From: Escherichia coli
Lineage (GTDB): Bacteria > Pseudomonadota > Gammaproteobacteria > Enterobacterales > Enterobacteriaceae
Reading direction: 5' to 3' (one strand)
Length of the DNA stretch: 64,000 nucleotides
Assembly (NCBI RefSeq): GCF_050320075.1
Contig: NZ_CP190021.1
Below the pieces are notes generated by a model, which searched no databases, was not told the DNA's origin, and saw nothing but the letters and a program-made list of their open reading frames with translations. Positions 1 to 20,661 of the stretch are shown here, one piece after another; positions within the stretch are counted from its first letter, which is position 1; each line of letters opens with the position of its first letter. A program made the translations under genes and the position numbers.

Positions 1-1077
1 GTGTATAAATACACGGCACAATCGCTCCGCCATAAGCGACAGCTTGTGGCAGGTCTGAAGAATACTCCATATAACGCAGTACACTGGAGTCAGTTAGCAC
101 CCGAAGAGCAGATCCGTTTCTGGGAAGACTATGAAGCGGGAAGGGCGACCACTTTCCTGGTTGAACCGGAAAGGAAGCGCACGAAGCGTCGTCGTGGTGA
201 GCACTCCACCAAACCCAAATGCGAAAATCCGTCCTGGTATCGTCCTGAGCGCTATAAGGCGCTGAGCGGGCAGCTCGGGCACGCCTACAACCGTCTGGTG
301 AAAAAGGACCCGGTGACCGGCGAGCAGAGCCTGCGCATGCACATGTCTCTGCATCCTTTTTACGTGCAGAAACGAACGTATGTCGGTCGCAAATATGCTT
401 TCCGTCCGGAAAAACAACGCCTCCTCGATGCCGTCTGGCCGGTTCTGGTCAGCTTCAGTGATGCGGGCACACATACCGTAGGCATGAGTGTTTCCCGTCT
501 GGCCAGAGAAATCAGCCCGAAAGACAGCAAGGGGAAGGTTATTCCGGAACTGGAAGTGACGGTCTCCCGCCTTTCCCGTTTGCTGGCCGAACAGGTACGT
601 TTTGGTGTGCTGGGTGTTTCAGAGGAAACCCTGTGGGACCGTGAAACCCGCCAGCGTCTGCCACGTTACGTCTGGATAACACCGGCAGGCTGGCAGATGC
701 TGGGCGTCGACATGGTAAAACTTCACGAACAGCAGCAGAAACGACTGCGTGAAAGTGAAATCCGCCAGCAGCTCATTCGGGAAGGTGTTCTGCGTGAGGA
801 TGAAGATATCTCCGTACATGCGGCCAGAAAACGCTGGTATCTGCAGCGCAGTCAGGATGCGCTGAAACACCGTCGTGCGAAAGCAGCAGCCAGTAAGCGC
901 GCCAGACGCCTGAAGAAACTGCCTGCCGACCAGCAGATTCATGAGATGGCAGAGTATCTCAGGAAGCGTCTGCCTCCGGATGAAGCCTATTTTTGTTCCG
1001 ATGACCATCTGAAGCGAATGGCCATCAGGGAGTTGCGTCAGCTTGAACTGACGCTGGCTGCCCCGCCACCGCACTAG
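1..1077 (+). CDS. repZ: Replication initiator RepZ/RepA of I-complex plasmids; ORF opens at window position 1, so the true 5' end is probably upstream
   Basis: 358-aa ORF recognised from memory as IncI1-type RepZ (KRTKRRRGEHSTKPKCENP, C-terminal LAAPPPH); consistent with yacABC, nikAB, trbABC and traL-Y backbone in the same window. Confidence 0.8.
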   Translation: MYKYTAQSLRHKRQLVAGLKNTPYNAVHWSQLAPEEQIRFWEDYEAGRATTFLVEPERKRTKRRRGEHSTKPKCENPSWYRPERYKALSGQLGHAYNRLVKKDPVTGEQSLRMHMSLHPFYVQKRTYVGRKYAFRPEKQRLLDAVWPVLVSFSDAGTHTVGMSVSRLAREISPKDSKGKVIPELEVTVSRLSRLLAEQVRFGVLGVSEETLWDRETRQRLPRYVWITPAGWQMLGVDMVKLHEQQQKRLRESEIRQQLIREGVLREDEDISVHAARKRWYLQRSQDALKHRRAKAAASKRARRLKKLPADQQIHEMAEYLRKRLPPDEAYFCSDDHLKRMAIRELRQLELTLAAPPPH

Positions 1078-1650
1078 ACAGCACCATTCCCTCAGCACTG
1101 AATCATCACCAGCCCCTCCGGGGCTTTCGGCGCTGGTTCCGCTCAGCCCAAAATCCGCAGTAATCACCTTAAATCCCCTCAGAGGGGCATATCTGCCCAT
1201 AAAACCACGCATCAGTCATCAGAACATGGCCACGTTGTTTCAGTTATCCACATAAATCCGCAAACAAAGAACTTTAAGAAGCTGCAAACCTGAAACAGCA
1301 AACCTGCAATATAGTCTTAACCCCATTATTTAATCCCCTGCGTTGCTTCGCCGCAGGGAAAATCTTTATCTCTGAGACCACTGTGAACAAATACAAAGAG
1401 GCCTTCGCTTGCAGCGGCCAAGGCCGCGCCGCTCAGAATCTAAAAGCACCTCCCACGCTAACGCGCGGGCCCCGAACCTCACCGTTCTGAAACCACAACA
1501 AAAAGACATCAGGAATAAAAACACCACACAAACGCAGCACCGTGCCCACCCCTCATAACTGAAAAGCGAGGCCGCCCCCGCCCAAAGGGCGGGAACAACA
1601 TCGCTTTTAATTATGAATGTTGTAACTACATTATCATCGCTGTCAGTCTT
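1078..1650. other. Probable CIS/oriV region downstream of repZ (position approximate)
   Basis: Non-coding stretch immediately 3' of repZ; in IncI/IncFII-like replicons the origin lies downstream of the rep gene (established knowledge); no specific motif verified. Confidence 0.3.
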
Positions 1651-1985
1651 CTGGCTGGATGTTCTCAGTACACGCTCGTAAGCGGCCCTGACGGCCCGCT
1701 AACGCGGAGATACGCCCCGACTTCGGGTAAACCCTCGTCGGGACCACTCCGACCGCGCACAGAAACTCTCTCATGGCTGAAAGCGGGTATAGCTTAGCAG
1801 GGCTGGGGATGGGTAAGGTGAAATCTATCAATCAGTACCGGCTGACGCCGGGCTTCGGCGGTTTTACTCCGGTATCACATGTAACCACAGCGTGCCGCCT
1901 TCCATGCCGCTGGCGCGGCATATCCTGGTGACGATATCTGAATCGTTATATACTGTGTATATACGTAGTAATGACGAGGTGATAA

Positions 1986-2255
1986 ATGGCACAGGTTAAT
2001 ATGAGTTTAAGAATCGACGCTGAACTGAAGGATGCTTTTATGGCCGCTGCAAAAAGCATGGACCGTAATGGCTCTCAGTTAATCCGGGATTTTATGCGCC
2101 AGACCGTTGAACGGCAGCATAATACCTGGTTCCGTGACCAGGTTGCGGCAGGACGTCAGCAACTCGAGCACGGCGATGTGCTTCCCCATGACATGGTCGA
2201 ATCCTCTGCTGCAGCATGGCGGGATGAAATGAGCAGGAAGGTTGCCGGTAAATGA
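1986..2255 (+). CDS. yacA: RelB/DinJ-like antitoxin (YacA)
   Basis: 89-aa ORF, stop overlaps start of the next gene (ATGATGG); small acidic C-terminus typical of type II antitoxins. Confidence 0.7.
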   Translation: MAQVNMSLRIDAELKDAFMAAAKSMDRNGSQLIRDFMRQTVERQHNTWFRDQVAAGRQQLEHGDVLPHDMVESSAAAWRDEMSRKVAGK

Positions 2256-2533
2256 TGGAGATATTCTGGACCATGCTGGCCAGCCAGGACAGGAAGCGCA
2301 TTCGTGAGTACATTGCGGAGCAGAACCTGATGGCTGCCATTGAACTGGACGAACGGATTGGTTATTCAGCCAGCAGCCTGGCCGGGCAGCCGTATAAAGG
2401 CCGCAACGGTCGTGTGGAAGGTACCCGGGAACTGGTTATTCACCCGCATTTTGTTCTGGTTTATGAGGTCGACAGCCAGTGGGGAAAAGTGTATATCCTG
2501 CGCGTGTTGCATACTGCACAGAAGTGGCCATAG
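2252..2533 (+). CDS. yacB: RelE/ParE-superfamily toxin (YacB)
   Basis: 93-aa ORF translationally coupled to yacA; size and position typical of RelE/ParE toxin. Confidence 0.7.
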   Translation: MMEIFWTMLASQDRKRIREYIAEQNLMAAIELDERIGYSASSLAGQPYKGRNGRVEGTRELVIHPHFVLVYEVDSQWGKVYILRVLHTAQKWP

Positions 2534-2572
2534 AGGGGCTGTCCGGATATAAGGAAAGGAGATGCAATAACC

Positions 2573-3421
2573 ATGAATAATGATGAGCTGGCCACCAGAC
2601 GTGCGCAGGCGATTGCCGAAGACAGGTGTTTCTCGAAAGGACGTTTGCGCGATGAATTCAGAATGAAACCAGCCCCCGGTGCTGAGCCGGTTAAGTGGTA
2701 TAAAAACACTTATGGTGGCAGGTTCGCTGTATACCGAATTGCAGACTGTGTTCCGATGCGTGAGAAACGCCCTCTGACGAGTAAACAACAGCTGGCTGGC
2801 CAGCGACTTTCCGTTTTATCCAGACTTAACAGCACCAGTGGCCGGATGGCACGGCAGGCATATGACTGGCTGAGTCTGGCACCGCTCTTTCTGGATACTG
2901 AAACGACAGGACTGGATAATACCGCGGAAGCCCTGGAAATCGGCCTGACCGATGCGGCCGGTCAGGTGGTATTTGAAACCAGGCTGAAGCCCACGGTCGC
3001 CATCGGGGCGCAGGCCGCCGCTGTGCATGGTATCAGCGAGCAGGCTCTCTGCGGCGCACCATCATGGACAGATGTGGCGCGGCAACTGCGTCATGCAATC
3101 GGGGACCGACCAGTAATTATCTTTAATGCCCGGTTCGACATCCGCATTCTGAAACAGACTGCTGCCGCACATAGCGATCCGGCTGACTGGCTGGAAGAAC
3201 TGACGGTATATTGTGCGATGGAGCTGGCTGCAGGATATTATGGGGCCACCAACCGCTATGGCACGATTTCACTGGCCTGTGCTGCCAGCCAGGCCGGACT
3301 GACCTGGGAAGGGCAGGCACACTCAGCGATCGCCGACGCACGGATGACGGCAGGGGTGGTAAACGCTATTGCTGCATATCATCTGGAACTGCTGCAGGAA
3401 CAGGCACGGCTGAAAATCTGA
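2573..3421 (+). CDS. yacC: DnaQ-like DEDDh 3'-5' exonuclease domain protein (YacC)
   Basis: 282-aa ORF with Exo I motif (LFLDTETTGLD) and a C-terminal H-x4-D motif (HSAIAD). Confidence 0.7.
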   Translation: MNNDELATRRAQAIAEDRCFSKGRLRDEFRMKPAPGAEPVKWYKNTYGGRFAVYRIADCVPMREKRPLTSKQQLAGQRLSVLSRLNSTSGRMARQAYDWLSLAPLFLDTETTGLDNTAEALEIGLTDAAGQVVFETRLKPTVAIGAQAAAVHGISEQALCGAPSWTDVARQLRHAIGDRPVIIFNARFDIRILKQTAAAHSDPADWLEELTVYCAMELAAGYYGATNRYGTISLACAASQAGLTWEGQAHSAIADARMTAGVVNAIAAYHLELLQEQARLKI

Positions 3422-3492
3422 CCGCCTGGCCTGTATACCGCAATCATTTACGTTATCCAGACGTAAATCCGCCGCTTGTTGCTGTCAGCATG

Positions 3493-3524
3493 TTAATGCT
3501 AATGTATGTGTACATTAGCATTAA
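3493..3524. repeat. Perfect 14-bp inverted repeat with 4-bp spacer (TTAATGCTAATGTA-TGTG-TACATTAGCATTAA)
   Basis: Read directly from sequence between yacC and the Tn21-type IR. Confidence 0.8.
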
Positions 3525-3624
3525 TGAGGGATGATATGTGAGAGACAAAACCAGGGAGGCCATGCGGCTTTTTTTAGGCGGCAGGTGCTACACGGCTGAA
3601 AAACTTGAAAAGGATTATCTGGCT

Positions 3625-3662
3625 GGGGGCACCTCAGAAAACGGAAAATAAAGCACGCTAAG
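3625..3662. mobile_element. Tn21-subfamily 38-bp terminal inverted repeat (IRmer-type)
   Basis: Exact match from memory to GGGGGCACCTCAGAAAACGGAAAATAAAGCACGCTAAG. Confidence 0.85.
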
Positions 3663-3783
3663 GCATAGCTGACCTTGCCAGGCCTGCTTCGCCCTGTAGT
3701 GACGCGATCAACGGGCAGGAAACATTCCCCTTTCGTGCATGGCAGGCGCACACGAGTTCAGACAGCACGGTTTCCATGCGCGC
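3658..3783 (-). pseudogene. merR: merR 3' remnant (last ~41 codons of MerR)
   Basis: Minus-strand translation ends ...[39 protein letters not shown], matching the Tn21/Tn501 MerR C-terminus; upstream residues are unrelated. Confidence 0.75.
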
Positions 3784-4960
3784 CGTCGTGCGGAGATCAT
3801 CAGTCCGTTGGCGCAGTCGGAGACGGTCGGGCACGAAGCGGCCGATATGGCGGCTCAGGCGCTGGGCTTGTCTCGGCGCCAGGTATACGTTCTGATCCGG
3901 CGTGCCCGGCAAGGCAGCGGCCTCGTGACGGATCTGGTGCCCGGCCAGTCCGGTGGAGGTAAAGGTAAGGGGCGCTTGCCGGAACCGGTCGAGCGCGTCA
4001 TCCACGAGCTACTGCAAAAGCGGTTCCTGACCAAGCAGAAGCGCAGCCTAGCGGCCTTTCACCGCGAAGTCACTCAGGTGTGCAAGGCTCAAAAACTGCG
4101 AGTGCCGGCGCGCAATACCGTGGCCTTACGGATCGCTAGCCTTGACCCGCGCAAGGTCATCCGCCGGCGGGAAGGCCAGGATGCCGCTCGTGACCTACAA
4201 GGTGTGGGCGGCGAGCCTCCTGCCGTGACCGCGCCGCTGGAGCAGGTGCAGATAGACCATACGGTCATCGACCTGATCGTGGTCGATGACCGCGACCGGC
4301 AACCTATTGGCCGCCCGTACCTGACCCTCGCCATCGACGTGTTCACCCGCTGCGTGCTCGGCATGGTCGTCACGCTGGAAGCGCCGTCTGCCGTTTCGGT
4401 TGGCCTGTGCCTCGTGCATGTCGCCTGCGACAAGCGCCCTTGGCTGGAAGGACTGAACGTGGAAATGGATTGGCAGATGAGCGGCAAGCCCTTGCTGCTC
4501 TACCTAGACAACGCGGCCGAGTTCAAGAGCGAGGCCCTGCGCCGGGGTTGCGAGCAGCATGGCATCCGGCTGGACTATCGCCCGCTGGGACAGCCGCACT
4601 ATGGCGGCATCGTGGAACGGATCATCGGCACGGCGATGCAGATGATTCACGACGAACTGCCGGGAACGACCTTCTCCAACCCTGACCAGCGCGGCGACTA
4701 CGATTCCGAAAACAAGGCCGCCCTGACGCTGCGCGAGCTAGAGCGCTGGCTCACATTGGCGGTCGGCACCTACCACGGTTCGGTGCACAACGGCCTGCTC
4801 CAACCGCCGGCCGCGCGCTGGGCCGAGGCCGTGGCGCGTGTCGGCGTACCGGCCGTCGTCACACGCGCTACTTCGTTCCTGGTCGATTTTCTGCCGATCC
4901 TCCGGCGCACGCTGACCCGCACCGGCTTTGTCATCGACCACATCCACTACTACGCCGATG
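3781..4960 (+). pseudogene. tniA: tniA (Tn402/Tn5053-type transposase) fragment, 5' end replaced and 3' end cut by IS26
   Basis: ORF 3739-4977 matches TniA from memory from [19 protein letters not shown] onward; the last codons (GHCCK) are read from the IS26 terminal repeat. Confidence 0.7.
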
Positions 4961-5780
4961 GGCACTGTTGCAAATAGTCGGTGGTGATAAACTTATCATC
5001 CCCTTTTGCTGATGGAGCTGCACATGAACCCATTCAAAGGCCGGCATTTTCAGCGTGACATCATTCTGTGGGCCGTACGCTGGTACTGCAAATACGGCAT
5101 CAGTTACCGTGAGCTGCAGGAGATGCTGGCTGAACGCGGAGTGAATGTCGATCACTCCACGATTTACCGCTGGGTTCAGCGTTATGCGCCTGAAATGGAA
5201 AAACGGCTGCGCTGGTACTGGCGTAACCCTTCCGATCTTTGCCCGTGGCACATGGATGAAACCTACGTGAAGGTCAATGGCCGCTGGGCGTATCTGTACC
5301 GGGCCGTCGACAGCCGGGGCCGCACTGTCGATTTTTATCTCTCCTCCCGTCGTAACAGCAAAGCTGCATACCGGTTTCTGGGTAAAATCCTCAACAACGT
5401 GAAGAAGTGGCAGATCCCGCGATTCATCAACACGGATAAAGCGCCCGCCTATGGTCGCGCGCTTGCTCTGCTCAAACGCGAAGGCCGGTGCCCGTCTGAC
5501 GTTGAACACCGACAGATTAAGTACCGGAACAACGTGATTGAATGCGATCATGGCAAACTGAAACGGATAATCGACGCCACGCTGGGATTTAAATCCATGA
5601 AGACGGCTTACGCCACCATCAAAGGTATTGAGGTGATGCGTGCACTACGCAAAGGCCAGGCCTCAGCATTTTATTATGGTGATCCCCTGGGCGAAATGCG
5701 CCTGGTAAGCAGAGTTTTTGAAATGTAAGGCCTTTGAATAAGACAAAAGGCTGCCTCATCGCTAACTTTGCAACAGTGCC
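4961..5780 (+). mobile_element. IS26 copy 1 (820 bp)
   Basis: GGCACTGTTGCAAA terminal repeats at both ends; internal tnpA. Confidence 0.95.
5006..5728 (+). CDS. tnpA: IS26 transposase Tnp26
   Basis: 240-aa ORF MNPFKGRHFQRDIILWAVRWYCKYGISYREL... Confidence 0.95.
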   Translation: MLMELHMNPFKGRHFQRDIILWAVRWYCKYGISYRELQEMLAERGVNVDHSTIYRWVQRYAPEMEKRLRWYWRNPSDLCPWHMDETYVKVNGRWAYLYRAVDSRGRTVDFYLSSRRNSKAAYRFLGKILNNVKKWQIPRFINTDKAPAYGRALALLKREGRCPSDVEHRQIKYRNNVIECDHGKLKRIIDATLGFKSMKTAYATIKGIEVMRALRKGQASAFYYGDPLGEMRLVSRVFEM

Positions 5781-5903
5781 GGATTATGTCCACGATAAGC
5801 ACCTGGGTCGATTCCTGGGAGGCGGCCATGAGGGTAGGGAAGCGCCGTCCCGTCAAGTCAGCGTAATGCTCTGCCAGTGTTACAACCAATTAACCAATTC
5901 TGA

Positions 5904-6719
5904 TTAGAAAAACTCATCGAGCATCAAATGAAACTGCAATTTATTCATATCAGGATTATCAATACCATATTTTTGAAAAAGCCGTTTCTGTAATGAAGGA
6001 GAAAACTCACCGAGGCAGTTCCATAGGATGGCAAGATCCTGGTATCGGTCTGCGATTCCGACTCGTCCAACATCAATACAACCTATTAATTTCCCCTCGT
6101 CAAAAATAAGGTTATCAAGTGAGAAATCACCATGAGTGACGACTGAATCCGGTGAGAATGGCAAAAGCTTATGCATTTCTTTCCAGACTTGTTCAACAGG
6201 CCAGCCATTACGCTCGTCATCAAAATCACTCGCATCAACCAAACCGTTATTCATTCGTGATTGCGCCTGAGCGAGACGAAATACGCGATCGCTGTTAAAA
6301 GGACAATTACAAACAGGAATCGAATGCAACCGGCGCAGGAACACTGCCAGCGCATCAACAATATTTTCACCTGAATCAGGATATTCTTCTAATACCTGGA
6401 ATGCTGTTTTCCCGGGGATCGCAGTGGTGAGTAACCATGCATCATCAGGAGTACGGATAAAATGCTTGATGGTCGGAAGAGGCATAAATTCCGTCAGCCA
6501 GTTTAGTCTGACCATCTCATCTGTAACATCATTGGCAACGCTACCTTTGCCATGTTTCAGAAACAACTCTGGCGCATCGGGCTTCCCATACAATCGATAG
6601 ATTGTCGCACCTGATTGCCCGACATTATCGCGAGCCCATTTATACCCATATAAATCAGCATCCATGTTGGAATTTAATCGCGGCCTCGAGCAAGACGTTT
6701 CCCGTTGAATATGGCTCAT
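5904..6719 (-). CDS. aph(3')-Ia: Aminoglycoside 3'-phosphotransferase APH(3')-Ia (kanamycin/neomycin resistance)
   Basis: 271-aa ORF MSHIQRETSCSRPRLNSNMDADLYGYKWARDNVGQSGATIYRLYGKP...; flanked by direct IS26 copies (Tn4352-like). Confidence 0.95.
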   Translation of the reverse strand: MSHIQRETSCSRPRLNSNMDADLYGYKWARDNVGQSGATIYRLYGKPDAPELFLKHGKGSVANDVTDEMVRLNWLTEFMPLPTIKHFIRTPDDAWLLTTAIPGKTAFQVLEEYPDSGENIVDALAVFLRRLHSIPVCNCPFNSDRVFRLAQAQSRMNNGLVDASDFDDERNGWPVEQVWKEMHKLLPFSPDSVVTHGDFSLDNLIFDEGKLIGCIDVGRVGIADRYQDLAILWNCLGEFSPSLQKRLFQKYGIDNPDMNKLQFHLMLDEFF

Positions 6720-6806
6720 AACACCCCTTGTATTACTGTTTATGTAAGCAGACAGTTTTATTGTTCATGATGATATATTTTTATCTTGTGCAATGTAACA
6801 TCAGAG

Positions 6807-7626
6807 GGCACTGTTGCAAATAGTCGGTGGTGATAAACTTATCATCCCCTTTTGCTGATGGAGCTGCACATGAACCCATTCAAAGGCCGGCATTTTCAGC
6901 GTGACATCATTCTGTGGGCCGTACGCTGGTACTGCAAATACGGCATCAGTTACCGTGAGCTGCAGGAGATGCTGGCTGAACGCGGAGTGAATGTCGATCA
7001 CTCCACGATTTACCGCTGGGTTCAGCGTTATGCGCCTGAAATGGAAAAACGGCTGCGCTGGTACTGGCGTAACCCTTCCGATCTTTGCCCGTGGCACATG
7101 GATGAAACCTACGTGAAGGTCAATGGCCGCTGGGCGTATCTGTACCGGGCCGTCGACAGCCGGGGCCGCACTGTCGATTTTTATCTCTCCTCCCGTCGTA
7201 ACAGCAAAGCTGCATACCGGTTTCTGGGTAAAATCCTCAACAACGTGAAGAAGTGGCAGATCCCGCGATTCATCAACACGGATAAAGCGCCCGCCTATGG
7301 TCGCGCGCTTGCTCTGCTCAAACGCGAAGGCCGGTGCCCGTCTGACGTTGAACACCGACAGATTAAGTACCGGAACAACGTGATTGAATGCGATCATGGC
7401 AAACTGAAACGGATAATCGGCGCCACGCTGGGATTTAAATCCATGAAGACGGCTTACGCCACCATCAAAGGTATTGAGGTGATGCGTGCACTACGCAAAG
7501 GCCAGGCCTCAGCATTTTATTATGGTGATCCCCTGGGCGAAATGCGCCTGGTAAGCAGAGTTTTTGAAATGTAAGGCCTTTGAATAAGACAAAAGGCTGC
7601 CTCATCGCTAACTTTGCAACAGTGCC
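6807..7626 (+). mobile_element. IS26 copy 2
   Basis: Terminal repeats identified; same orientation as copy 1. Confidence 0.95.
6852..7574 (+). CDS. tnpA: IS26 transposase
   Basis: 240-aa ORF nearly identical to copy 1 (one difference, D vs G near the C-terminus). Confidence 0.95.
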   Translation: MLMELHMNPFKGRHFQRDIILWAVRWYCKYGISYRELQEMLAERGVNVDHSTIYRWVQRYAPEMEKRLRWYWRNPSDLCPWHMDETYVKVNGRWAYLYRAVDSRGRTVDFYLSSRRNSKAAYRFLGKILNNVKKWQIPRFINTDKAPAYGRALALLKREGRCPSDVEHRQIKYRNNVIECDHGKLKRIIGATLGFKSMKTAYATIKGIEVMRALRKGQASAFYYGDPLGEMRLVSRVFEM

Positions 7627-7695
7627 GGATTGAATATAACCGACGTGACTGTTACATTTAGGTGGCTAAACCCGTCAAGCCCTCAGGAGTGAATC

Positions 7696-8601
7696 ATGAC
7701 CGTAGTCACGACCGCCGATACCTCCCAACTGTACGCACTTGCAGCCCGACATGGGCTCAAGCTCCATGGCCCGCTGACTGTCAATGAGCTTGGGCTCGAC
7801 TATAGGATCGTGATCGCCACCGTCGACGATGGACGTCGGTGGGTGCTGCGCATCCCGCGCCGAGCCGAGGTAAGCGCGAAGGTCGAACCAGAGGCGCGGG
7901 TGCTGGCAATGCTCAAGAATCGCCTGCCGTTCGCGGTGCCGGACTGGCGCGTGGCCAACGCCGAGCTCGTTGCCTATCCCATGCTCGAAGACTCGACTGC
8001 GATGGTCATCCAGCCTGGTTCGTCCACGCCCGACTGGGTCGTGCCGCAGGACTCGGAGGTCTTCGCGGAGAGCTTCGCGACCGCGCTCGCCGCCCTGCAT
8101 GCCGTCCCCATTTCCGCCGCCGTGGATGCGGGGATGCTCATCCGTACACCGACGCAGGCCCGTCAGAAGGTGGCCGACGACGTTGACCGCGTCCGACGCG
8201 AGTTCGTGGTGAACGACAAGCGCCTCCACCGGTGGCAGCGCTGGCTCGACGACGATTCGTCGTGGCCAGATTTCTCCGTGGTGGTGCATGGCGATCTCTA
8301 CGTGGGCCATGTGCTCATCGACAACACGGAGCGCGTCAGCGGGATGATCGACTGGAGCGAGGCCCGCGTTGATGACCCTGCCATCGACATGGCCGCGCAC
8401 CTTATGGTCTTTGGTGAAGAGGGGCTCGCGAAGCTCCTCCTCACGTATGAAGCGGCCGGTGGCCGGGTGTGGCCGCGGCTCGCCCACCACATCGCGGAGC
8501 GCCTTGCGTTCGGGGCGGTCACCTACGCACTCTTCGCCCTCGACTCGGGTAACGAAGAGTACCTCGCTGCGGCGAAGGCGCAGCTCGCCGCAGCGGAATG
8601 A
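7696..8601 (+). CDS. mph(A): Macrolide 2'-phosphotransferase Mph(A)
   Basis: 301-aa ORF MTVVTTADTSQLYALAARHGLKLHGPLTVNELGLDYRIV...; high-GC codon usage; followed by mrx and mphR. Confidence 0.95.
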   Translation: MTVVTTADTSQLYALAARHGLKLHGPLTVNELGLDYRIVIATVDDGRRWVLRIPRRAEVSAKVEPEARVLAMLKNRLPFAVPDWRVANAELVAYPMLEDSTAMVIQPGSSTPDWVVPQDSEVFAESFATALAALHAVPISAAVDAGMLIRTPTQARQKVADDVDRVRREFVVNDKRLHRWQRWLDDDSSWPDFSVVVHGDLYVGHVLIDNTERVSGMIDWSEARVDDPAIDMAAHLMVFGEEGLAKLLLTYEAAGGRVWPRLAHHIAERLAFGAVTYALFALDSGNEEYLAAAKAQLAAAE

Positions 8602-9836
8602 GCGAACGTCGATATAGCCCGCTCGCGACGCTGTTCGCGGCGACCTTTCTCTTCCGGATCGGCAACGCGGTGGCGGCCCTCGCGCTTCCATGGTTCGTCC
8701 TGTCTCATACAAAGAGCGCGGCCTGGGCGGGCGCCACGGCCGCTAGCAGCGTCATCGCGACCATCATCGGCGCGTGGGTTGGTGGTGGCCTCGTCGATCG
8801 GTTCGGGCGCGCGCCCGTCGCATTGATCTCGGGTGTGGTGGGCGGCGTGGCCATGGCGAGCATCCCACTGCTCGATGCCGTTGGCGCCCTCTCGAACACT
8901 GGGCTGATCGCTTGCGTGGTGCTCGGTGCCGCGTTCGACGCACCCGGTATGGCCGCGCAGGACAGTGAGCTGCCCAAACTCGGCCACGTCGCCGGGCTCT
9001 CCGTTGAGCGCGTCTCGTCACTGAAAGCGGTGATCGGGAACGTCGCGATTCTAGGTGGCCCGGCCCTTGGGGGGGCCGCAATCGGCCTGCTTGGCGCTGC
9101 GCCAACGCTCGGGCTGACGGCGTTCTGCTCCGTCCTTGCAGGTCTGCTCGGCGCGTGGGTGCTTCCCGCGCGTGCCGCTCGGACGATGACCACGACGGCG
9201 ACTCTCTCCATGCGCGCCGGCGTCGCTTTTCTCTGGAGCGAACCCCTGCTGCGCCCTCTCTTTGGTATAGTGATGATCTTCGTGGGCATCGTTGGCGCCA
9301 ACGGCAGCGTCATCATGCCTGCGCTGTTTGTAGATGCAGGACGCCAAGTAGCAGAGCTCGGGCTGTTCTCCTCAATGATGGGGGCTGGTGGTCTCCTTGG
9401 CATTGCCATTCATGCGTCGGTCGGCGCCCGGATATCAGCGCAGAACTGGCTGGCGGTGGCATTTTGTGGCTCTGCGGTGGGCTCGCTTCTGCTTTCACAG
9501 TTGCCAGGCGTGCCGGTGCTGATGTTGTTGGGCGCGCTCGTGGGACTGCTGACCGGCTCAGTCTCTCCCATTCTCAACGCTGCCATCTACAACCGCACGC
9601 CGCCAGAACTTCTCGGCCGGGTACTCGGCACGGTCTCGGCGGTGATGCTGTCAGCCTCGCCCATGGTTATGCTTGCGGCCGGCGCGTTTGTCGACCTTGC
9701 TGGTCCGCTCCCTGGCCTCGTTGTATCGGCCGTGTTTGCGGGGCTCGTGGCTCTACTCTCGCTCCGTCTTCAATTTGCTACAATGGCGGCGGCAGCCACA
9801 GCCTCCGCCCCAACCCATACAGAAGGTGAACACTGA
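8598..9836 (+). CDS. mrx: MFS-type membrane protein Mrx
   Basis: 412-aa hydrophobic ORF overlapping the mph(A) stop; canonical mph(A)-mrx-mphR(A) order. Confidence 0.9.
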   Translation: MSERRYSPLATLFAATFLFRIGNAVAALALPWFVLSHTKSAAWAGATAASSVIATIIGAWVGGGLVDRFGRAPVALISGVVGGVAMASIPLLDAVGALSNTGLIACVVLGAAFDAPGMAAQDSELPKLGHVAGLSVERVSSLKAVIGNVAILGGPALGGAAIGLLGAAPTLGLTAFCSVLAGLLGAWVLPARAARTMTTTATLSMRAGVAFLWSEPLLRPLFGIVMIFVGIVGANGSVIMPALFVDAGRQVAELGLFSSMMGAGGLLGIAIHASVGARISAQNWLAVAFCGSAVGSLLLSQLPGVPVLMLLGALVGLLTGSVSPILNAAIYNRTPPELLGRVLGTVSAVMLSASPMVMLAAGAFVDLAGPLPGLVVSAVFAGLVALLSLRLQFATMAAAATASAPTHTEGEH

Positions 9837-10420
9837 TGCCCCGCCCCAAGCTCAAGTCCGATGACGAGGTACTCGAGGCCGCCACCGTAGTGCTGAAGCG
9901 TTGCGGTCCCATAGAGTTCACGCTCAGCGGAGTAGCAAAGGAGGTGGGGCTCTCCCGCGCAGCGTTAATCCAGCGCTTCACCAACCGCGATACGCTGCTG
10001 GTGAGGATGATGGAGCGCGGCGTCGAGCAGGTGCGGCATTACCTGAATGCGATACCGATAGGCGCAGGGCCGCAAGGGCTCTGGGAATTTTTGCAGGTGC
10101 TCGTTCGGAGCATGAACACTCGCAACGACTTCTCGGTGAACTATCTCATCTCCTGGTACGAGCTCCAGGTGCCGGAGCTACGCACGCTTGCGATCCAGCG
10201 GAACCGCGCGGTGGTGGAGGGGATCCGCAAGCGACTGCCCCCAGGTGCTCCTGCGGCAGCTGAGTTGCTCCTGCACTCGGTCATCGCTGGCGCGACGATG
10301 CAGTGGGCCGTCGATCCGGATGGTGAGCTAGCTGATCATGTGCTGGCTCAGATCGCTGCCATCCTGTGTTTAATGTTTCCCGAACACGACGATTTCCAAC
10401 TCCTCCAGGCACATGCGTAA
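9836..10420 (+). CDS. mphR(A): TetR-family repressor MphR(A)
   Basis: 194-aa ORF immediately after mrx. Confidence 0.9.
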   Translation: MPRPKLKSDDEVLEAATVVLKRCGPIEFTLSGVAKEVGLSRAALIQRFTNRDTLLVRMMERGVEQVRHYLNAIPIGAGPQGLWEFLQVLVRSMNTRNDFSVNYLISWYELQVPELRTLAIQRNRAVVEGIRKRLPPGAPAAAELLLHSVIAGATMQWAVDPDGELADHVLAQIAAILCLMFPEHDDFQLLQAHA

Positions 10421-10858
10421 ACGGAGGTGTGCAGAGTCCCTGCGGCAGGCGACGAACACGACCGTCGTCGATTAGTACCGGTACGGTCGGTGGTATCGAA
10501 GTCTTGATCACCACTCAGGTCTACGGCTTACAAATGGTGACCATCCCGATACTTGCGTCAGAGCACCGGGCCGATTCTTTGACAGTGAATCACTCCCGTA
10601 AGGTTGTGCCGGTGTGGGTGTCCCGGGTCGAGACGATACTCCGCCAATGCGCCCAGCAAACAACCTGGCCATCGCAGGTGGTGGGGAGCGGTGTGGCGGA
10701 TGAGTTGGACAAGTTGGTGTAGCAGCACGAGCACGGCGAGATAACATCGCAGGAGTTCGACATGCTCAAGAGACAGCTGATTGCGAATCGCGATGCAGAT
10801 TCATAACCCGATTGCGGGTTGGCTTCACTCCACCATCACCGAGCAGACTAGCACGGCG

Positions 10859-11297
10859 GGCTCTGTTGCAAAGATTGGCGGCAGTCAGAGGTAGGCTGTC
10901 GCTCTGCGCCGATCAGGCGGCTGCTGCGAAATGGTGGTTGAGCATGCCCATGGCCTCCGTCAGCGCCGAGGGCCCAATGCCAAAAGCTCTCTCCACAAGG
11001 CGCACCTCGCCCCTGATGCCGGGCTGCAGGCACCAGGGGCGAGCCTGTCCTTTGCGCAGGGCTCGCATGACTTCGAATCCCTTGATCGTGGCATAGGCCG
11101 TGGGGATCGATTTGAAACCGCGCACCGGCTTGATCAGTATCTTGAGCTTTCCGTGATCGGCCTCGATCACGTTATTGAGATACTTCACCTGCCGGTGGGC
11201 CGTCTCCCGGTCCAGCTTTCCTTCGCGCTTCAATTCGGTGATCGCTGCACCATAGCTCGGCGCTTTGTCGGTATTGAGCGTGGCAGGCTTTTCCCAG
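10859..11297 (-). mobile_element. IS6100 remnant (IR plus 3' part of tnpA), truncated by IS26 copy 3
   Basis: GGCTCTGTTGCAAAGATTGGCGGCAGTCAGAGG end at 10859; IS6-family tnpA C-terminal translation on the minus strand runs into the IS26 terminal repeat. Confidence 0.8.
10913..11297 (-). pseudogene. tnpA: IS6100 transposase 3' fragment
   Basis: Translation WEKPATLNTDKAPSYGAAITELKREGK... is IS6-family but distinct from IS26; the N-terminal 16 residues of the ORF are read from the IS26 end. Confidence 0.8.
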
Positions 11298-12117
11298 GGC
11301 ACTGTTGCAAAGTTAGCGATGAGGCAGCCTTTTGTCTTATTCAAAGGCCTTACATTTCAAAAACTCTGCTTACCAGGCGCATTTCGCCCAGGGGATCACC
11401 ATAATAAAATGCTGAGGCCTGGCCTTTGCGTAGTGCACGCATCACCTCAATACCTTTGATGGTGGCGTAAGCCGTCTTCATGGATTTAAATCCCAGCGTG
11501 GCGCCGATTATCCGTTTCAGTTTGCCATGATCGCATTCAATCACGTTGTTCCGGTACTTAATCTGTCGGTGTTCAACGTCAGACGGGCACCGGCCTTCGC
11601 GTTTGAGCAGAGCAAGCGCGCGACCATAGGCGGGCGCTTTATCCGTGTTGATGAATCGCGGGATCTGCCACTTCTTCACGTTGTTGAGGATTTTACCCAG
11701 AAACCGGTATGCAGCTTTGCTGTTACGACGGGAGGAGAGATAAAAATCGACAGTGCGGCCCCGGCTGTCGACGGCCCGGTACAGATACGCCCAGCGGCCA
11801 TTGACCTTCACGTAGGTTTCATCCATGTGCCACGGGCAAAGATCGGAAGGGTTACGCCAGTACCAGCGCAGCCGTTTTTCCATTTCAGGCGCATAACGCT
11901 GAACCCAGCGGTAAATCGTGGAGTGATCGACATTCACTCCGCGTTCAGCCAGCATCTCCTGCAGCTCACGGTAACTGATGCCGTATTTGCAGTACCAGCG
12001 TACGGCCCACAGAATGATGTCACGCTGAAAATGCCGGCCTTTGAATGGGTTCATGTGCAGCTCCATCAGCAAAAGGGGATGATAAGTTTATCACCACCGA
12101 CTATTTGCAACAGTGCC
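11298..12117 (-). mobile_element. IS26 copy 3 (inverted relative to copies 1 and 2)
   Basis: Terminal repeats at 11298 and 12117; tnpA on minus strand. Confidence 0.95.
11350..12072 (-). CDS. tnpA: IS26 transposase
   Basis: 240-aa ORF identical to copy 2. Confidence 0.95.
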   Translation of the reverse strand: MLMELHMNPFKGRHFQRDIILWAVRWYCKYGISYRELQEMLAERGVNVDHSTIYRWVQRYAPEMEKRLRWYWRNPSDLCPWHMDETYVKVNGRWAYLYRAVDSRGRTVDFYLSSRRNSKAAYRFLGKILNNVKKWQIPRFINTDKAPAYGRALALLKREGRCPSDVEHRQIKYRNNVIECDHGKLKRIIGATLGFKSMKTAYATIKGIEVMRALRKGQASAFYYGDPLGEMRLVSRVFEM

Positions 12118-12550
12118 CCACAAAATCCCCACGGCAGGCCTGATACGTTATGCCGTTCAGCTCCACCTCCAGATCAGTGGCAGAAGTGCCATCTGCGGGC
12201 AGACCTGCTGCCGGGACCAGCGGCAGTACGACGACTTCTGCCGCACGCTGTTCTGCCCGGAGGCGGTCCTGTTCTGTCAGCAGCAGAGGCTGTGCCACGG
12301 CCCGGCCGGCGTCCGTCAGCTCCACTGCCAGCTGCAGGTTCGGAGCGCGCAGGGTACGCAGCCAGCCGGCATCCTCCAGACGACGGCAGGAGGCGCGCAG
12401 GTTTGGCCCGTAGACCGGGGCTTCCCCGCTTCGCTCCAGCACCCGTTCTATGTCCCGCGTCAGCACGGGTCCTGGCCGTTTTTCATCAAGGGCAGCCAGC
12501 ACAATCAGCACTCTCCGCTGCAGTGGCGACGGTCGGCGGCTCTGAGTCAT
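12118..12550 (-). pseudogene. GC-rich gene of unknown function, 3' end truncated by IS26 copy 3
   Basis: ORF MTQSRRPSPLQRRVLIVLAALDEKRPGPVLTRDIERVLE... ends in GHCCK read from the IS26 terminal repeat; start overlaps the upstream gene stop. Confidence 0.6.
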
Positions 12551-12816
12551 TTCCAGTCATCCTCCGGCCAGATGAGCTTTCTGAGGCGCTGAAAGTCGGC
12601 GTCAATGAGCTCCTGTCTCTTTATGGCATTCATTGAGGCATAGCCATTTATGGCCAGTTCATGCCAGAAGATCAGCACGGCTCCGGCTTTGGCTGACTCG
12701 CAGAGATAAATCGCGCCCTGGCTGTCCAGATTGCATTCCCGGATGCGTCGTTCCGTAAACCGGGTTAGTTGTTCATAGCTGAGTGAAAACACCCTTTCTT
12801 CATCCATCCTGCACAC
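12547..12816 (-). CDS. Hypothetical protein, first gene of a two-gene operon
   Basis: 89-aa ORF translationally coupled to the truncated downstream gene. Confidence 0.5.
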   Translation of the reverse strand: MCRMDEERVFSLSYEQLTRFTERRIRECNLDSQGAIYLCESAKAGAVLIFWHELAINGYASMNAIKRQELIDADFQRLRKLIWPEDDWK

Positions 12817-12837
12817 TCCATCTGATAATGTTCTTAA

Positions 12838-12937
12838 AGGTAAAAATCACATCCTGCATGATTTGTGTGTTATTGATTTATGATAATATCAGGTATGGTT
12901 TTATATTTAATGGTGAAAATCACATCAGATATGATTT
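12838..12937. promoter_or_regulatory. Two ~26-bp direct repeats (GGTRAAAATCACATC-N4-ATGATTT) in an AT-rich intergenic region; candidate operator/res sub-sites
   Basis: Repeats at 12838-12863 and 12911-12937 read from sequence. Confidence 0.5.
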
Positions 12938-13375
12938 TATGTGTGCTGCTTAATTATCATATCTCCTGCCCGTTCTCTGCCGCACAGATCCGGTTTCCGG
13001 CTGTTACGGATCTTCCTCTCCCTCCGCACAGCGCCATCTCCCGTCAGCACAACATGTAGTGCTGAATTCAGCTGCTGATGACACTATATGTTGTGTCATC
13101 TCCCTGACCTGTGATGCGCCGCGCAGGGGCGGAAAACAGCGATATGATGATTTTCTCAGCGTGGTACACTTCCGGAAAGTTGTGATATTCCGGAAAGTCG
13201 GATCTGACGGAAACGGCTCTCCGGTAATTTAACGGCGTGGTTATATGGATGCTTGTTATCATGGTGATGATGATAACGGCATGATGTTATCAGACGGCGT
13301 GACGGTAAGGGCAGTGATGATGGATGACGTTATCGCATGACCGTCCCTGCCCGGAAAAGAAAAAAGGAGTCACCC

Positions 13376-13789
13376 ATGTTTTTTATTGAGAATGAAGGTC
13401 AGGCTGTCGCCGGAACGGATTACTGGCAGTCTGTACAGGCGCAGGCCGGATATGTCTACCTCAGCTGGAATGCCGGCGCAGCCAGGCTGCTTGTCCCGGA
13501 TGCGGCAAAACATTTACTCAGGGAGATGCGGGGGGCTGAGTACGTCATCATCAGTAAGGGAGCACTGCATGGCCGCGATGCGCTGGAACTGGTATTTGAA
13601 GACGGCAGCGATGCGCCGTTTGTGATCCACATGCTGAGTGAGCAGTGCGATCGCCTGCTCCCCGAAAACAACCAGGGAGGGGGTTTTGTTGTCACCGTCT
13701 GGACGCGTGGAGGTAACCAGCTCCGTTATCCGGGAAAGTACCGTGTTGTGGAAAACCTGCCCGACGTTTCCCCGTGGAGTGAACACTGA
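13376..13789 (+). CDS. Hypothetical protein translationally coupled to the downstream recombinase
   Basis: ATG at 13376 with AGGAG RBS (ORF track starts earlier at 13337); stop TGA overlaps TGATATG start of the recombinase. Confidence 0.6.
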   Translation: MFFIENEGQAVAGTDYWQSVQAQAGYVYLSWNAGAARLLVPDAAKHLLREMRGAEYVIISKGALHGRDALELVFEDGSDAPFVIHMLSEQCDRLLPENNQGGGFVVTVWTRGGNQLRYPGKYRVVENLPDVSPWSEH

Positions 13790-13790
13790 T

Positions 13791-14576
13791 ATGCAGCACC
13801 TGCCGGCACCGATCCACCATGCCCGGGATGCTGCTCAGCTTCCTGTTGCCATCGATTATCCGGCAGCGCTGGCACTCCGCCAGATGTCGATGGTTCATGA
13901 TGAACTGCCAAAATACCTGCTGGCCCCTGAAGTGAGCGCCCTGCTCCATTACGTGCCGGATCTGCGCCGCAAAATGCTGCTGGCCACACTGTGGAACACC
14001 GGTGCGCGCATTAATGAAGCACTGGCGCTGACGCGGGGGGATTTTTCGCTTGCGCCTCCGTATCCGTTTGTGCAGTTGGCCACTCTGAAGCAGCGGACCG
14101 AAAAAGCCGCCAGGACGGCAGGAAGAATGCCCGCCGGTCAGCAGACTCACCGGCTGGTTCCGCTCTCTGACGCCTGGTACGTCAGCCAGCTGCAGACGAT
14201 GGTGGCCACACTGAAAATCCCCATGGAACGGCGTAATAAACGAACAGGCAGGACAGAGAAAGCGCGGATCTGGGAAGTGACGGACAGAACGGTCAGGACC
14301 TGGATTGGGGAGGCGGTTGCCGCCGCTGCCGCTGATGGAGTGACGTTCTCTGTCCCGGTCACGCCACATACGTTCCGCCATTCCTATGCGATGCACATGC
14401 TGTATGCCGGTATACCGCTGAAGGTCCTGCAGAGTCTGATGGGGCATAAGTCCATCAGCTCAACGGAGGTCTACACGAAGGTCTTTGCGCTGGATGTCGC
14501 GGCGCGTCATCGTGTGCAGTTCGCCATGCCGGAAGCCGATGCGGTAGCGCTGATAAAACAACTTGAGAGGCGTTAA
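13791..14576 (+). CDS. Tyrosine site-specific recombinase (XerD/ResD-like, probable multimer resolvase)
   Basis: C-terminal HTFRHSYAMHMLYAG...LMGHKSISSTEVYTKV motifs (catalytic R-H-R-Y region); probable start MQHLPAP at 13791 within track ORF 13638-14576. Confidence 0.8.
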   Translation: MQHLPAPIHHARDAAQLPVAIDYPAALALRQMSMVHDELPKYLLAPEVSALLHYVPDLRRKMLLATLWNTGARINEALALTRGDFSLAPPYPFVQLATLKQRTEKAARTAGRMPAGQQTHRLVPLSDAWYVSQLQTMVATLKIPMERRNKRTGRTEKARIWEVTDRTVRTWIGEAVAAAAADGVTFSVPVTPHTFRHSYAMHMLYAGIPLKVLQSLMGHKSISSTEVYTKVFALDVAARHRVQFAMPEADAVALIKQLERR

Positions 14577-14823
14577 AAAGCCGTATTCGCGGTTCAGTCA
14601 AGGGGGAGCTGGTGCATTCATCTATGGAAGATAGAGCACCAAACTCATAGAGGCCACGTTCTCAGGCCAGAACAGTCTTATATCTCTGGCGCTGACAACC
14701 CATAGTACTTGCCTGGATGGGAAACTCTTCTTGTGCCGAGCGTAAGAGCCATCTGCCGGAACGCTTCCTCGCCAGTTCGCTCGCTACGCACAGTTACATG
14801 GCTGCGGCGAGGGCTGCCTGATT

Positions 14824-15150: not shown

Positions 15151-15159
15151 GGGGGCTAA

Positions 15160-16166: not shown

Positions 16167-16167
16167 T

Positions 16168-16270: not shown

Positions 16271-16274
16271 TCAA

Positions 16275-16400: not shown

Positions 16401-16404
16401 TGGT

Positions 16405-17379: not shown

Positions 17380-17382
17380 TCG

Positions 17383-18038: not shown

Positions 18039-18061
18039 GTTCTCATCTTCCTTTTCTTTTG

Positions 18062-20648: not shown

Positions 20649-20661
20649 GAAGGAGACGAGA

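Follow-up and report, generated by a model that had tools for sequence, protein, structure and literature searches.

Results

Composition of the region

The window analysed here is a 64,000-nt stretch of an IncI1 plasmid from Escherichia coli (GCF_050320075.1, contig NZ_CP190021.1). It carries the following features, given with their positions in the window.

3620-3624, plus strand: TGGCT, the one copy left of the 5-bp target-site duplication from the entry of a Tn21-family transposon into the IncI1 backbone
3625-3662, plus strand: 38-bp terminal inverted repeat (IR) of Tn21, mer end; the sole Tn21 IR in the window
3658-3784, minus strand: 3' remnant of merR, last 41 codons plus stop, 100% identical to merR of Tn21 derivatives (L003 6035-6161)
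3777-3784, no strand: TGCGCGCC, 8-bp microhomology at the junction of a 4,690-bp merR-tniA deletion
3778-4960, plus strand: tniA fragment, codons 24-417, cut on its 3' side by IS26 copy 1; start codon and IRt absent
4961-5780, plus strand: IS26 copy 1, 820 bp, with G614A at window position 5574 (Tnp26 G184D)
5781-6806, minus strand: aphA1a passenger of PTn4352, 1,026 bp, with the aph(3')-Ia coding sequence at 5904-6719 (minus strand)
6807-7626, plus strand: IS26 copy 2, 820 bp, in direct orientation relative to copy 1
7696-8601, plus strand: mph(A), within 7627-10858
8598-9836, plus strand: mrx(A), within 7627-10858
9836-10420, plus strand: mphR(A), within 7627-10858, followed by a spacer up to IS6100
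10859-11297, minus strand: IS6100 remnant, 439 bp of the 880-bp full-length element, its outer IR intact and only the 3' portion of the transposase gene retained; cut by IS26 copy 3
11298-12117, minus strand: IS26 copy 3, 820 bp, inverted relative to copies 1 and 2, interrupting IS6100 at one end and a backbone gene at the other
12118-12550, minus strand: hypothetical backbone gene, its last 52 codons removed by the IS26-adjacent deletion, collinear with pSH1148_107 31113-31545 (full gene 30955-31545)

In comparisons with NCBIfam profiles APH(3')-Ia scored 649.9 bits (cut-off 625) and Mph(A) 685 bits (cut-off 550). All three IS26 copies contain an intact 234-aa tnp26 ORF for an IS6-family DDE transposase, scoring 276 bits against transpos_IS6 (cut-off 125). 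The IS6100 remnant covered positions 123-202 of the 202 positions of the IS6-family profile and the 41-residue MerR peptide positions 104-144 of 144 of the MerR profile (E = 1.4e-19), while the hypothetical gene at 12118-12550 had no NCBIfam match. As predicted from these genes, the region would confer kanamycin/neomycin resistance via APH(3')-Ia and MphR-regulated macrolide resistance via Mph(A).

The Tn21 end and its insertion site

The Tn21 IR was searched for in the window and in pSH1148_107 with a pattern allowing up to 5 substitutions, which gave one 38-bp IR in the former and two in the latter. As the first-pass annotation had proposed, the original target site could be defined by comparison with IncI1 relatives. 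In pSH1148_107 both IRs (4034 and 23960) are flanked by TGGCT and the whole transposon occupies 4034-23960; the reconstructed empty site had perfect (100%) matches in many IncI1 plasmids, and 834 plasmid records contained 80% or more of it in one place. A single transposon insertion into the backbone generated the 5-bp duplication TGGCT, as seen in this relative. A Tn21 transposon comprises two 38-bp IRs, tnpA, tnpR, res, the mer operon and a 5-bp duplication. What is left in the window is one IR and 41 merR codons, and by comparison with pSH1148_107 no tnp genes and no other mer genes were found there; it is therefore a remnant and not a functional member.

IS26 copies, their flanks and the origin of the block

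Three IS26 copies, two direct and one inverted, had been described as bounding aph(3')-Ia and mph(A)-mrx-mphR(A), and this arrangement was recovered at 4961-5780, 6807-7626 and 11298-12117. The 14-bp terminal inverted repeats GGCACTGTTGCAAA are present at both ends of every copy. The copies are 99.9-100% identical among themselves and to the IS26 of reference plasmids: copies 2 and 3 are identical, and copy 1 differs at one base, G614A, a variant found in ~210 records. The flanks are CGCCGATG / GGATTATG for copy 1, CATCAGAG / GGATTGAA for copy 2 and TTTCCCAG / CCACAAAA for copy 3. On re-inspection of these six flanks no 8-bp target duplication, direct or reverse-complement, was detected, in agreement with the first-pass annotation; its flank ACATCAGA for copy 2 was shifted by one base and should read CATCAGAG, which does not affect the conclusion. 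Such a lack of duplications is what secondary events (IS26-IS26, homologous or deletion) are expected to produce.

The junction between tniA and copy 1 was found in 1,359 PLSDB plasmids of many types, including pHCM1. The reciprocal half-junction, IS26 followed by CGCCGATG and tniA, survives in 198 other plasmids, and thus copy 1 began as a classical insertion. The IS26 position in tniA goes back to an ancient ordinary transposition with the duplication CGCCGATG. Window positions 3777-11297 are continuous, at 99.8% identity, in plasmids with an intact mer operon, and the tniA/IS26 junction travels with a widespread block, tniA-IS26-(aphA1-IS26)-mph(A)-mrx-mphR(A)-IS6100, occurring in IncF, IncHI and other plasmids. 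Most likely this block would have entered the IncI1 lineage by homologous recombination in shared Tn21/integron sequence. Alternatively, IS26 could have inserted de novo at the same tniA nucleotide in IncI1, with the modules recruited singly and no pre-assembled block imported. IS26 is abundant, later steps such as translocatable-unit capture look alike under both routes, and in two IncF plasmids a homologous backbone gene carries IS26 at the equivalent nucleotide, so that site reuse is not impossible. However, the identical junction in so many plasmid types, the 7.5 kb between tniA and the end of the IS6100 remnant, collinear with IncF and IncHI plasmids at 99.8% identity, and the occurrence of the rare 14-bp-deleted variant also in an IncF plasmid make independent insertion improbable, and import of the block is far more parsimonious than de novo insertion with local recruitment.

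The macrolide genes lie in the order mph(A)-mrx-mphR(A) with IS26 immediately upstream and IS6100 downstream. This is the IS26-mph(A)-mrx-mphR(A)-IS6100 unit, named as such beside a mer-containing Tn21 remnant (PMC6848029). In the window the unit is 100% identical to NZ_CP069958.1 up to 11297 and 99.8% identical overall to L003/L004, and the IS6100 remnant is continuous with the full IS6100 of L002-L004 up to the same position.

The aphA1 unit

Copies 1 and 2 enclose aphA1a in direct orientation, as in PTn4352, and the unit is a 14-bp-deleted variant of it. Compared with the canonical passenger of 1,040 bp (PMC12670165 Table 1), AATTTATGAGTAAA is missing beside the right end of copy 1, a shortening overlooked in the first-pass annotation. 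The 14-bp-deleted passenger was found in one other PLSDB record only, that of an IncF plasmid. A single G adjoins the IRL of copy 2, upstream of aphA1a; this marks the stable Tn4352 type and not Tn4352B (PMC4676283). A conservative, orientation-specific and duplication-free IS26-IS26 reaction is on record, as is movement of the aphA1a translocatable unit (PMC4196232). The aphA1 unit may have been joined beside an existing IS26 either by RecA recombination or in the conservative reaction by which Tnp26 inserts translocatable units; directly oriented IS26 copies lacking a new duplication are the outcome of both. Whether the 14 bp were lost by transposition is uncertain, a target 14 bp from the IS end being sterically awkward.

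The Tnp26 G184D exchange and the trimmed passenger may be functional, jointly altering IS26-aphA1 excision or IS26 activity; G184N at the same residue is reported to enhance IS26 activity. IS26 at the same nucleotide of the homologous backbone gene in unrelated IncF plasmids may in turn mark an insertion hot spot. Taken together, we give these two readings only a slim chance.

The third IS26 copy

Following copy 3 the backbone resumes at pSH1148_107 ~31113. The window corresponds to pSH1148_107 410-5369 plus 31110-82995 at 99.96-99.99% identity, with 7,157 bp in place of ~25.7 kb. The sequence missing relative to pSH1148_107 comprises the rest of IS6100, the integron, Tn21 tnpR/tnpA and a 7.15-kb backbone segment that carries the colicin Ia and immunity genes. 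This large deletion, marked by the third IS26, had escaped the first-pass annotation. On the other side of copy 3, the 1,259-bp block of IS6100 remnant and IS26 is 99.9% identical in the Klebsiella pneumoniae plasmid OW969757.1, and as it is common to both this side is the older junction. The IS26/backbone junction in the window's orientation was detected in no plasmid of PLSDB or complete E. coli genomes, and the last step therefore stands without an independent replicate; the full module combination of the window had no match in these databases either.

Short-read mis-joining across the 820-bp IS26 repeats would make the module order, orientation or adjacency unreal, above all the IS26/backbone joint and the apparent 25.7-kb loss. 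Three near-identical repeats of this length are a classic source of mis-joins, and an artefact would fit the unmatched junction and combination. Against this, most other junctions are independently present in other records, copy 1 has a private SNP that a collapsed repeat would normally not retain, and right after the junction 51.9 kb of backbone run collinear with pSH1148_107. We consider an artefact very unlikely.

The merR/tniA junction

The last 41 codons of merR had been noted to abut a 5'-truncated tniA with a non-native N-terminus, and alignment to intact Tn21 derivatives bears this out. In these the native ATG lies 68 nt further upstream, and the first 23 codons are missing from the window. 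The Tn21-type 38-bp IR placed 160 bp away corresponds to the IR start, ~155-160 bp before the joint; the IR end lies ~115 bp before it. Up to 4960 the tniA fragment is 100% identical to pSH1148_107. Its extent was derived from the L003/L004 alignment and translation, the whole gene being presumably ~559 codons long, which agrees with the start of tniB. A class 1 integron/Tn402 tni module has 25-bp ends IRi and IRt, intI1/attI and tniA-tniB-tniQ-tniR. Here the tni content is tniA codons 24-417 only, neither the IRt nor the IRi sequence was found within the window, and the intI1-bearing part of pSH1148_107 is missing.

Alignments of the window to the intact Tn21 derivatives pT16RC-1 and pKA2-1 overlap by exactly 8 bases, TGCGCGCC, an identity with a chance expectation of ~4^-8. 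A 44-bp junction-spanning query retrieved 103 PLSDB plasmids, all from Escherichia or Salmonella and 100 of them conjugative, among them pSH1148_107 with the junction unchanged; together with its IncI1 flank the junction was 100% identical in ~97 records. The junction is an older 4,690-bp microhomology deletion, not made by IS26, and a lineage marker. Deletion between two copies of TGCGCGCC took out merTPCADE, urf2 and the integron end IRt together with the 5' part of merR and the first 23 tniA codons, probably by RecA-independent microhomology deletion or replication slippage.

A mobile element or site-specific recombinase might have made the joint instead, through a Tn402/Tn5053-type insertion or through an adjacent deletion caused by an IS that was subsequently lost. 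Tn21-family transposons are indeed targets of Tn402-family elements, and the normal neighbour of tniA is the integron end IRt, but here IRt is missing together with the first 68 nt of tniA, and no IS, IR or res-like site was found at the joint. Moreover, the orientation of merR and tniA is that of Tn21 minus an internal segment, and the breakpoints share 8 identical bases, which leaves either origin highly improbable.

Discussion

The region is a decayed Tn21-type transposon with later IS26-carried kanamycin and macrolide resistance modules. Very probably it is the remnant of a Tn21-family mercury/class 1 integron transposon at an IncI1 accessory-gene site that was remodelled in routine steps. 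The view of the first-pass annotation, that IS26-IS26 (cointegrate/translocatable-unit) or homologous recombination assembled the array, as opposed to three simple transpositions, fits all the evidence. The stepwise reading is limited in that one sequence gives neither the order of events nor the enzyme, Tnp26 or RecA, for each IS26. Mobility is retained only by the IS26 copies and, as a translocatable unit, by IS26-aphA1; what is left of Tn21 and Tn402 is immobile.

The structure in which IS26 separates IS6100 from the backbone is the pattern left by IS26 adjacent deletion. The third IS26, inside IS6100, would have deleted from its other end to the backbone gene, removing the rest of IS6100, the integron, Tn21 tnpR/tnpA and the adjoining backbone, presumably by intramolecular replicative transposition. 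That copy 3 derives from one of the other two copies through an inverting reaction of this type, turning the mph(A) segment round and deleting nothing, is already disfavoured and extremely unlikely: copy 3 is inverted and sequence-identical to copy 2, and IS26 is known to make such inversions, but these would leave reverse-complementary 8-bp duplications on the inner and outer flank and none exists among the six, the orientation of mph(A)-mrx-mphR-IS6100 relative to tniA and IS26 matches hundreds of other plasmids, and the ~25.7 kb are missing and not inverted. The finding is thus genuine but ordinary, since all junctions can be explained by routine events; there is nothing new in kind, only known parts in one further permutation.

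Among known plasmids, pT16RC-1 (NZ_MN848327.1) and pKA2-1 (NZ_CP102870.1) carry mer - tniA remnant - IS26 - aphA1 - IS26 - mph(A)-mrx-mphR(A) - IS6100 - chrA - sul1 - class 1 integron. They are collinear with window 3777-11297 (99.8%) and share the exact tniA/IS26 junction and, at 100%, the IRmer-merR end. In contrast, the window is without 4,690 bp from the 5' part of merR to tniA codon 23 and 14 bp of the aphA1 passenger, an inverted IS26 truncates its IS6100 at 439 bp, and chrA, sul1, the integron and the tnp genes are gone.

The backbone, the Tn21 site and the merR/tniA junction are shared with pSH1148_107 (NC_019123.1, Salmonella Heidelberg; PMC3519518) and ~100 Escherichia and Salmonella relatives. 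Unlike the window, pSH1148_107 retains the remainder of tniA, tniB, IS1326, an integron with sul1 / aac(3)-VIa / aadA1, tnpR, tnpA, the second IR with its TGGCT duplication and the 7.15 kb of backbone (yagA, colicin Ia and immunity), and it has none of the window's three IS26 copies. Of the IncI1 relatives with mph(A), NZ_CP069958.1 (E. coli FDAARGOS_1279) is the closest. It has the same backbone site, merR/tniA and tniA/IS26 junctions and IS26-mph(A)-mrx-mphR(A)-IS6100 unit, whereas the aphA1 unit is absent and IS6100 is complete. Its third IS26 is a 3-nt variant, lies 35 bp past IS6100 and abuts the backbone at pSH1148_107 24430 instead of 31113; with these differences it is not the direct ancestor.

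As in PTn4352/Tn4352 (M20306), two direct IS26 copies surround aphA1a with a single G at the IRL, but the passenger is 1,026 bp and not 1,040 bp long and copy 1 encodes Tnp26 G184D. The unit is located in tniA, as is Tn4352B of pRMH760 (PMC4676283, PMC4196232), and the closest described framework is the translocatable-unit model for IS26 (Harmer, Moran and Hall).

Original insertion and comparison with pSH1148_107

The whole window was collinear with two segments of pSH1148_107 (NC_019123.1), an IncI1 plasmid of S. Heidelberg (PMC3519518), namely 410-5369 (99.96%) and 31110-82995 (99.987%). The two plasmids share the backbone, the joint between IR and backbone and the merR/tniA deletion but, unlike the window, pSH1148_107 keeps the whole transposon at 4034-23960, with tniA, tniB, IS1326, sul1, qacEdelta1, an ISCR-groEL-aac(3)-VIa-aadA1 integron, intI1, tnpR and tnpA. 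In pSH1148_107 TGGCT was found beside each of the two 38-bp IRs, and a 5-bp duplication is the expectation for Tn21-family transposition. The empty target site was rebuilt by joining both pSH1148_107 flanks with a single TGGCT. This sequence was 100% identical in many IncI1 plasmids, and 834 records had at least 80% of its length in one place. The rebuilt site defines the original target through IncI1 plasmids without the insertion, as had been proposed in the first-pass annotation.

In the window 7,157 bp (4961-12117) replace approx. 25.7 kb of pSH1148_107, consisting of the transposon remainder and 7.15 kb of backbone. The lost backbone (pSH1148_107 23961-31112; gap at window 12117/12118) included a ProQ/FinO-family gene, yagA and the genes for colicin Ia and immunity, and the final 52 codons are gone from the hypothetical gene that now stops at 12118. 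Since the colicin Ia and immunity genes are deleted, the plasmid should be colicin-negative, unlike its close relatives.

The merR/tniA junction

A single Tn21 end was found.

3625-3662, Tn21 38-bp inverted repeat, the only such repeat in the window

The junction was mapped by aligning the window to the mer-retaining Tn21 derivatives pT16RC-1 (NZ_MN848327.1) and pKA2-1 (NZ_CP102870.1). Window 3624-3784, comprising the IR and the merR 3' end, matched these at 100%, and 3777-11297 aligned from within tniA onward, so that both alignments overlap in 8 bases, TGCGCGCC. Relative to the two plasmids 4,690 bp are absent at the joint: on the mer side the 5' two-thirds of merR, followed by merT, merP, merC, merA, merD, merE and urf2, and on the integron side the terminus IRt with the initial 68 nt of tniA. 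The 41-residue peptide matched the MerR profile over its final 41 positions (NCBIfam). Alignment and profile thus confirmed that the last 41 codons of merR abut a 5'-truncated tniA near the Tn21 38-bp IR, as first annotated.

The merR and tniA remnants are oriented exactly as in Tn21 minus an internal piece, and inspection of the joint revealed no IS, terminal repeat or res site. For an 8-bp identity at random breakpoints approx. 1.5e-5 was expected by chance. Together, the Tn21-like orientation, the lack of an element end and this low expectation make a microhomology-mediated (illegitimate) deletion the best reading of how the joint would have formed. An origin by the action of a transposon or recombinase is disfavoured, as no element end was found there and the 8-bp microhomology is present.

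With a 44-bp junction probe, able to match only across the joint, 103 plasmids were found in PLSDB (67 from Escherichia, 36 from Salmonella; 100 of the 103 conjugative), and approx. 97 records were 100% identical over both the junction and the IncI1 backbone beside it. The junction had been called non-canonical; it is real but not peculiar to this DNA, and represents a lineage marker present in about 100 sequenced plasmids.

The mer deletion also created an in-frame ORF at 3739-4977 (+), the ATG of which lies on the antisense strand of merR. It comprises 13 new residues and then TniA from residue 24, here running on into IS26; in relatives with an uncut tniA (pSH1148_107) the product of the same ORF would be a TniA of nearly full length with an altered N-terminus.

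IS26 copies, flanks and resistance genes

By reading window 3000-13000 and searching for IS26 ends we identified three complete copies, and the same three arms were recovered by an independent repeat search.

IS26 copies with their 8-bp flanks
4961-5780, + strand, IS26 copy 1, 820 bp, complete; flanks CGCCGATG / GGATTATG
6807-7626, + strand, IS26 copy 2, 820 bp, complete; flanks CATCAGAG / GGATTGAA
11298-12117, - strand, IS26 copy 3, 820 bp, complete; flanks TTTCCCAG / CCACAAAA

Resistance genes and IS6100 fragment (NCBIfam)
5904-6719, - strand, APH(3')-Ia gene, 649.9 bits (cut-off 625)
7696-8601, Mph(A) gene, 685 bits (cut-off 550)
8598-9836, mrx, MFS protein
9836-10420, mphR(A), TetR-like protein
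10916-11296, IS6100 fragment, IS6-family C-terminal part

End search, repeat search and NCBIfam agreed with the earlier description of three IS26 copies bounding aph(3')-Ia and mph(A)-mrx-mphR(A). Comparison of the six flanks, direct and as reverse complements, gave no matching 8-bp pair. The reported absence of matching 8-bp repeats was therefore correct, but one flank had been given as ACATCAGA, displaced by one base, which is immaterial. The interpretation that the array was built by IS26-IS26 or homologous recombination was essentially right, the flanks being free of duplications.

Copies 2 and 3 are identical in sequence and copy 1 differs by one base, G614A (window 5574), which changes Gly184 of Tnp26 to Asp (G184D). 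This allele was found in approx. 210 PLSDB records. A literature search yielded no paper on G184D in IS26; residue 184 is the position changed (G184N) in IS26-v1, a variant cited in PMC9412624 as having enhanced activity.

From family membership, APH(3')-Ia is predicted to confer kanamycin/neomycin resistance, and Mph(A) with Mrx and the repressor MphR(A) macrolide resistance. Mercury resistance, the integron cassettes and sul1 have all been lost from the region. The Tn21 remnant, left with a single IR and lacking transposition genes, is immobile, and so is the Tn402 remnant, both of whose ends are missing. Copies 1 and 2 with aphA1 may still act as a translocatable unit, 1,846 bp in length. 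As copies 2 and 3 are mutually inverted, mph(A) is not releasable as a unit; each of these two copies can still form cointegrates.

Origin of the tniA-IS26 block and the aphA1 unit

Window 3777-11297, with the order tniA fragment, IS26, aphA1, IS26, mph(A), mrx, mphR(A) and IS6100 remnant, was continuous at 99.8% in mer-retaining IncF, IncHI and other plasmids. An "IS26-mph(A)-mrx-mphR(A)-IS6100 unit" beside a "mer-containing Tn21 remnant" and a chrA region is a recurrent module (PMC6848029). The exact tniA-IS26 joint was present in 1,359 PLSDB records, including pHCM1 of S. Typhi CT18, and the reciprocal half-joint, IS26 followed by CGCCGATG and the rest of tniA, in 198. Since both half-joints are known, copy 1 goes back to an ordinary event in which IS26 (or PTn4352) inserted into tniA and duplicated CGCCGATG; the left half alone survives here. 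Tn4352B has been located in tniA of In34 (PMC4676283).

The identical IS26 position in tniA is shared by the mer-deleted IncI1 lineage and many plasmids in which mer is intact, and the 3' part of tniA is uninterrupted in IncI1 relatives such as pSH1148_107. In the simplest history the IncI1 lineage would have acquired the block through homologous recombination in Tn21/integron sequence common to both partners, with 1.18 kb of tniA available as left-hand homology. Such an import is far more parsimonious than IS26 having inserted de novo at this very nucleotide of tniA.

IS26 reacts preferentially with another IS26 in a conservative, orientation-specific reaction, which places a translocatable unit beside the resident IS and generates neither a new IS copy nor a new duplication; the aphA1a unit of Tn4352B was shown to move in this way (Harmer, Moran and Hall; PMC4196232). 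The joints of the aphA1 segment with copies 1 and 2, and of copy 2 with mph(A), are accounted for either by this conservative Tnp26 reaction or by RecA recombination of one IS26 with another, which has an identical product; the two routes cannot be distinguished from sequence alone.

The aphA1 passenger is 1,026 bp here and 1,040 bp in canonical PTn4352 (PMC12670165 Table 1). The 14 missing bp (AATTTATGAGTAAA), which border IS26 in canonical PTn4352, adjoin the right end of copy 1 exactly (window 5780/5781). Among 1,222 PLSDB plasmids with that aphA1 flank the trimmed joint was found in one other, the IncF plasmid p2461-1, which also shares the tniA-IS26 joint and has an intact mer operon. With the 14 bp gone, GGATT stands at the start of the right flank of copy 1 as well as of copy 2, probably by coincidence; an origin of the loss in microhomology or conversion at this motif is unsupported, as p2461-1 has CTTGATAT after its second IS26. 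The unstable Tn4352B was ruled out by the single G beside IRL of copy 2, and the aphA1 unit is, judged from this sequence, the stable Tn4352 form as opposed to the readily excising Tn4352B (PMC4676283).

The third IS26 and the probable adjacent deletion

Copy 3, opposite in orientation to copies 1 and 2, cuts IS6100 after 439 bp. The 1,259 bp of IS6100 remnant and IS26 (10859-12117) were 99.9% identical to 6592-7850 of OW969757.1, a K. pneumoniae IncFIA/IncR plasmid, where the block lies in a different context beside an EcoRII restriction-modification locus. Of the two junctions of copy 3, the one with IS6100 is therefore the older, and the hybrid end travels between unrelated plasmids. On its other side copy 3 meets the backbone, not inverted, at approx. 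31113 of pSH1148_107. Such an arrangement is expected of an IS26-mediated adjacent deletion, in which intramolecular replicative transposition would have discarded the DNA in between as a circle.

Mis-assembly across the IS26 repeats is unlikely, as most junctions were independently attested and copy 1 retained a private SNP. An inversion by IS26 is excluded, since no 8-bp flanks are reverse complements of each other and 25.7 kb are missing.

The IS6100 remnant, IS26 and backbone in one piece (query 11000-12600) were absent from PLSDB and from complete E. coli genomes, and no database record had the IS26-backbone joint in the orientation of the window. Two IncF plasmids carry IS26 in the opposite orientation at the nucleotide equivalent to 12118 (NZ_CP148464.1, 7015/7016), in a gene homologous to the backbone gene at 94% identity; this may be chance or point to an IS26 insertion hot spot.

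Among IncI1 plasmids that carry mph(A) the closest, NZ_CP069958.1 from E. coli FDAARGOS_1279, differs from the window in having a complete IS6100; its third IS26, a 3-nt variant, lies 35 bp past IS6100, and its backbone endpoint is at 24430 of pSH1148_107. By these three differences it was rejected as a direct ancestor, and its deletion is independent of that in the window.

Other features of the window

An Rfam scan of the whole window gave nothing besides sok and AgrB RNAs, both distant from the resistance region. These are type I toxin-antitoxin loci of the IncI1 backbone, one hok/sok-like and the other dqlB (pSH1148_107 annotation). Three pairs of diverged direct repeats of approx. 330-500 bp were seen as off-diagonal matches in the pSH1148_107 alignment, in the leading region (ssb, psiB, ardA area). 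We take them to be, probably, repeated non-coding elements known from IncI/IncF leading regions.

42689-42846, + strand, sok antitoxin RNA (Rfam, 134 bits)
43471-43558, - strand, AgrB-type antisense RNA (Rfam, 53.7 bits)
21975-22328 and 28922-29274, diverged direct repeats, 93% identity
23621-24117 and 29964-30457, diverged direct repeats, 90% identity
30136-30461 and 33014-33342, diverged direct repeats, 82% identity

Comparison with known systems

The importance of the region is purely local. It records a resistance swap in an IncI1 lineage that is common among Salmonella and E. coli associated with poultry and livestock, in which a gentamicin/streptomycin/sulfonamide integron gave way to kanamycin and macrolide (azithromycin-relevant) resistance and the colicin Ia genes were lost. 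The merR/tniA junction (TGCGCGCC), the IS6100 remnant-IS26 junction and the IS26-backbone junction are useful epidemiological lineage markers. All components are 99.8-100% identical to known, annotated sequences and no new biology is involved, each step being published behaviour of Tn21, class 1 integrons or IS26. The structure is a textbook case of Tn21, class 1 integron and IS26 decay and reassembly, already known in kind.
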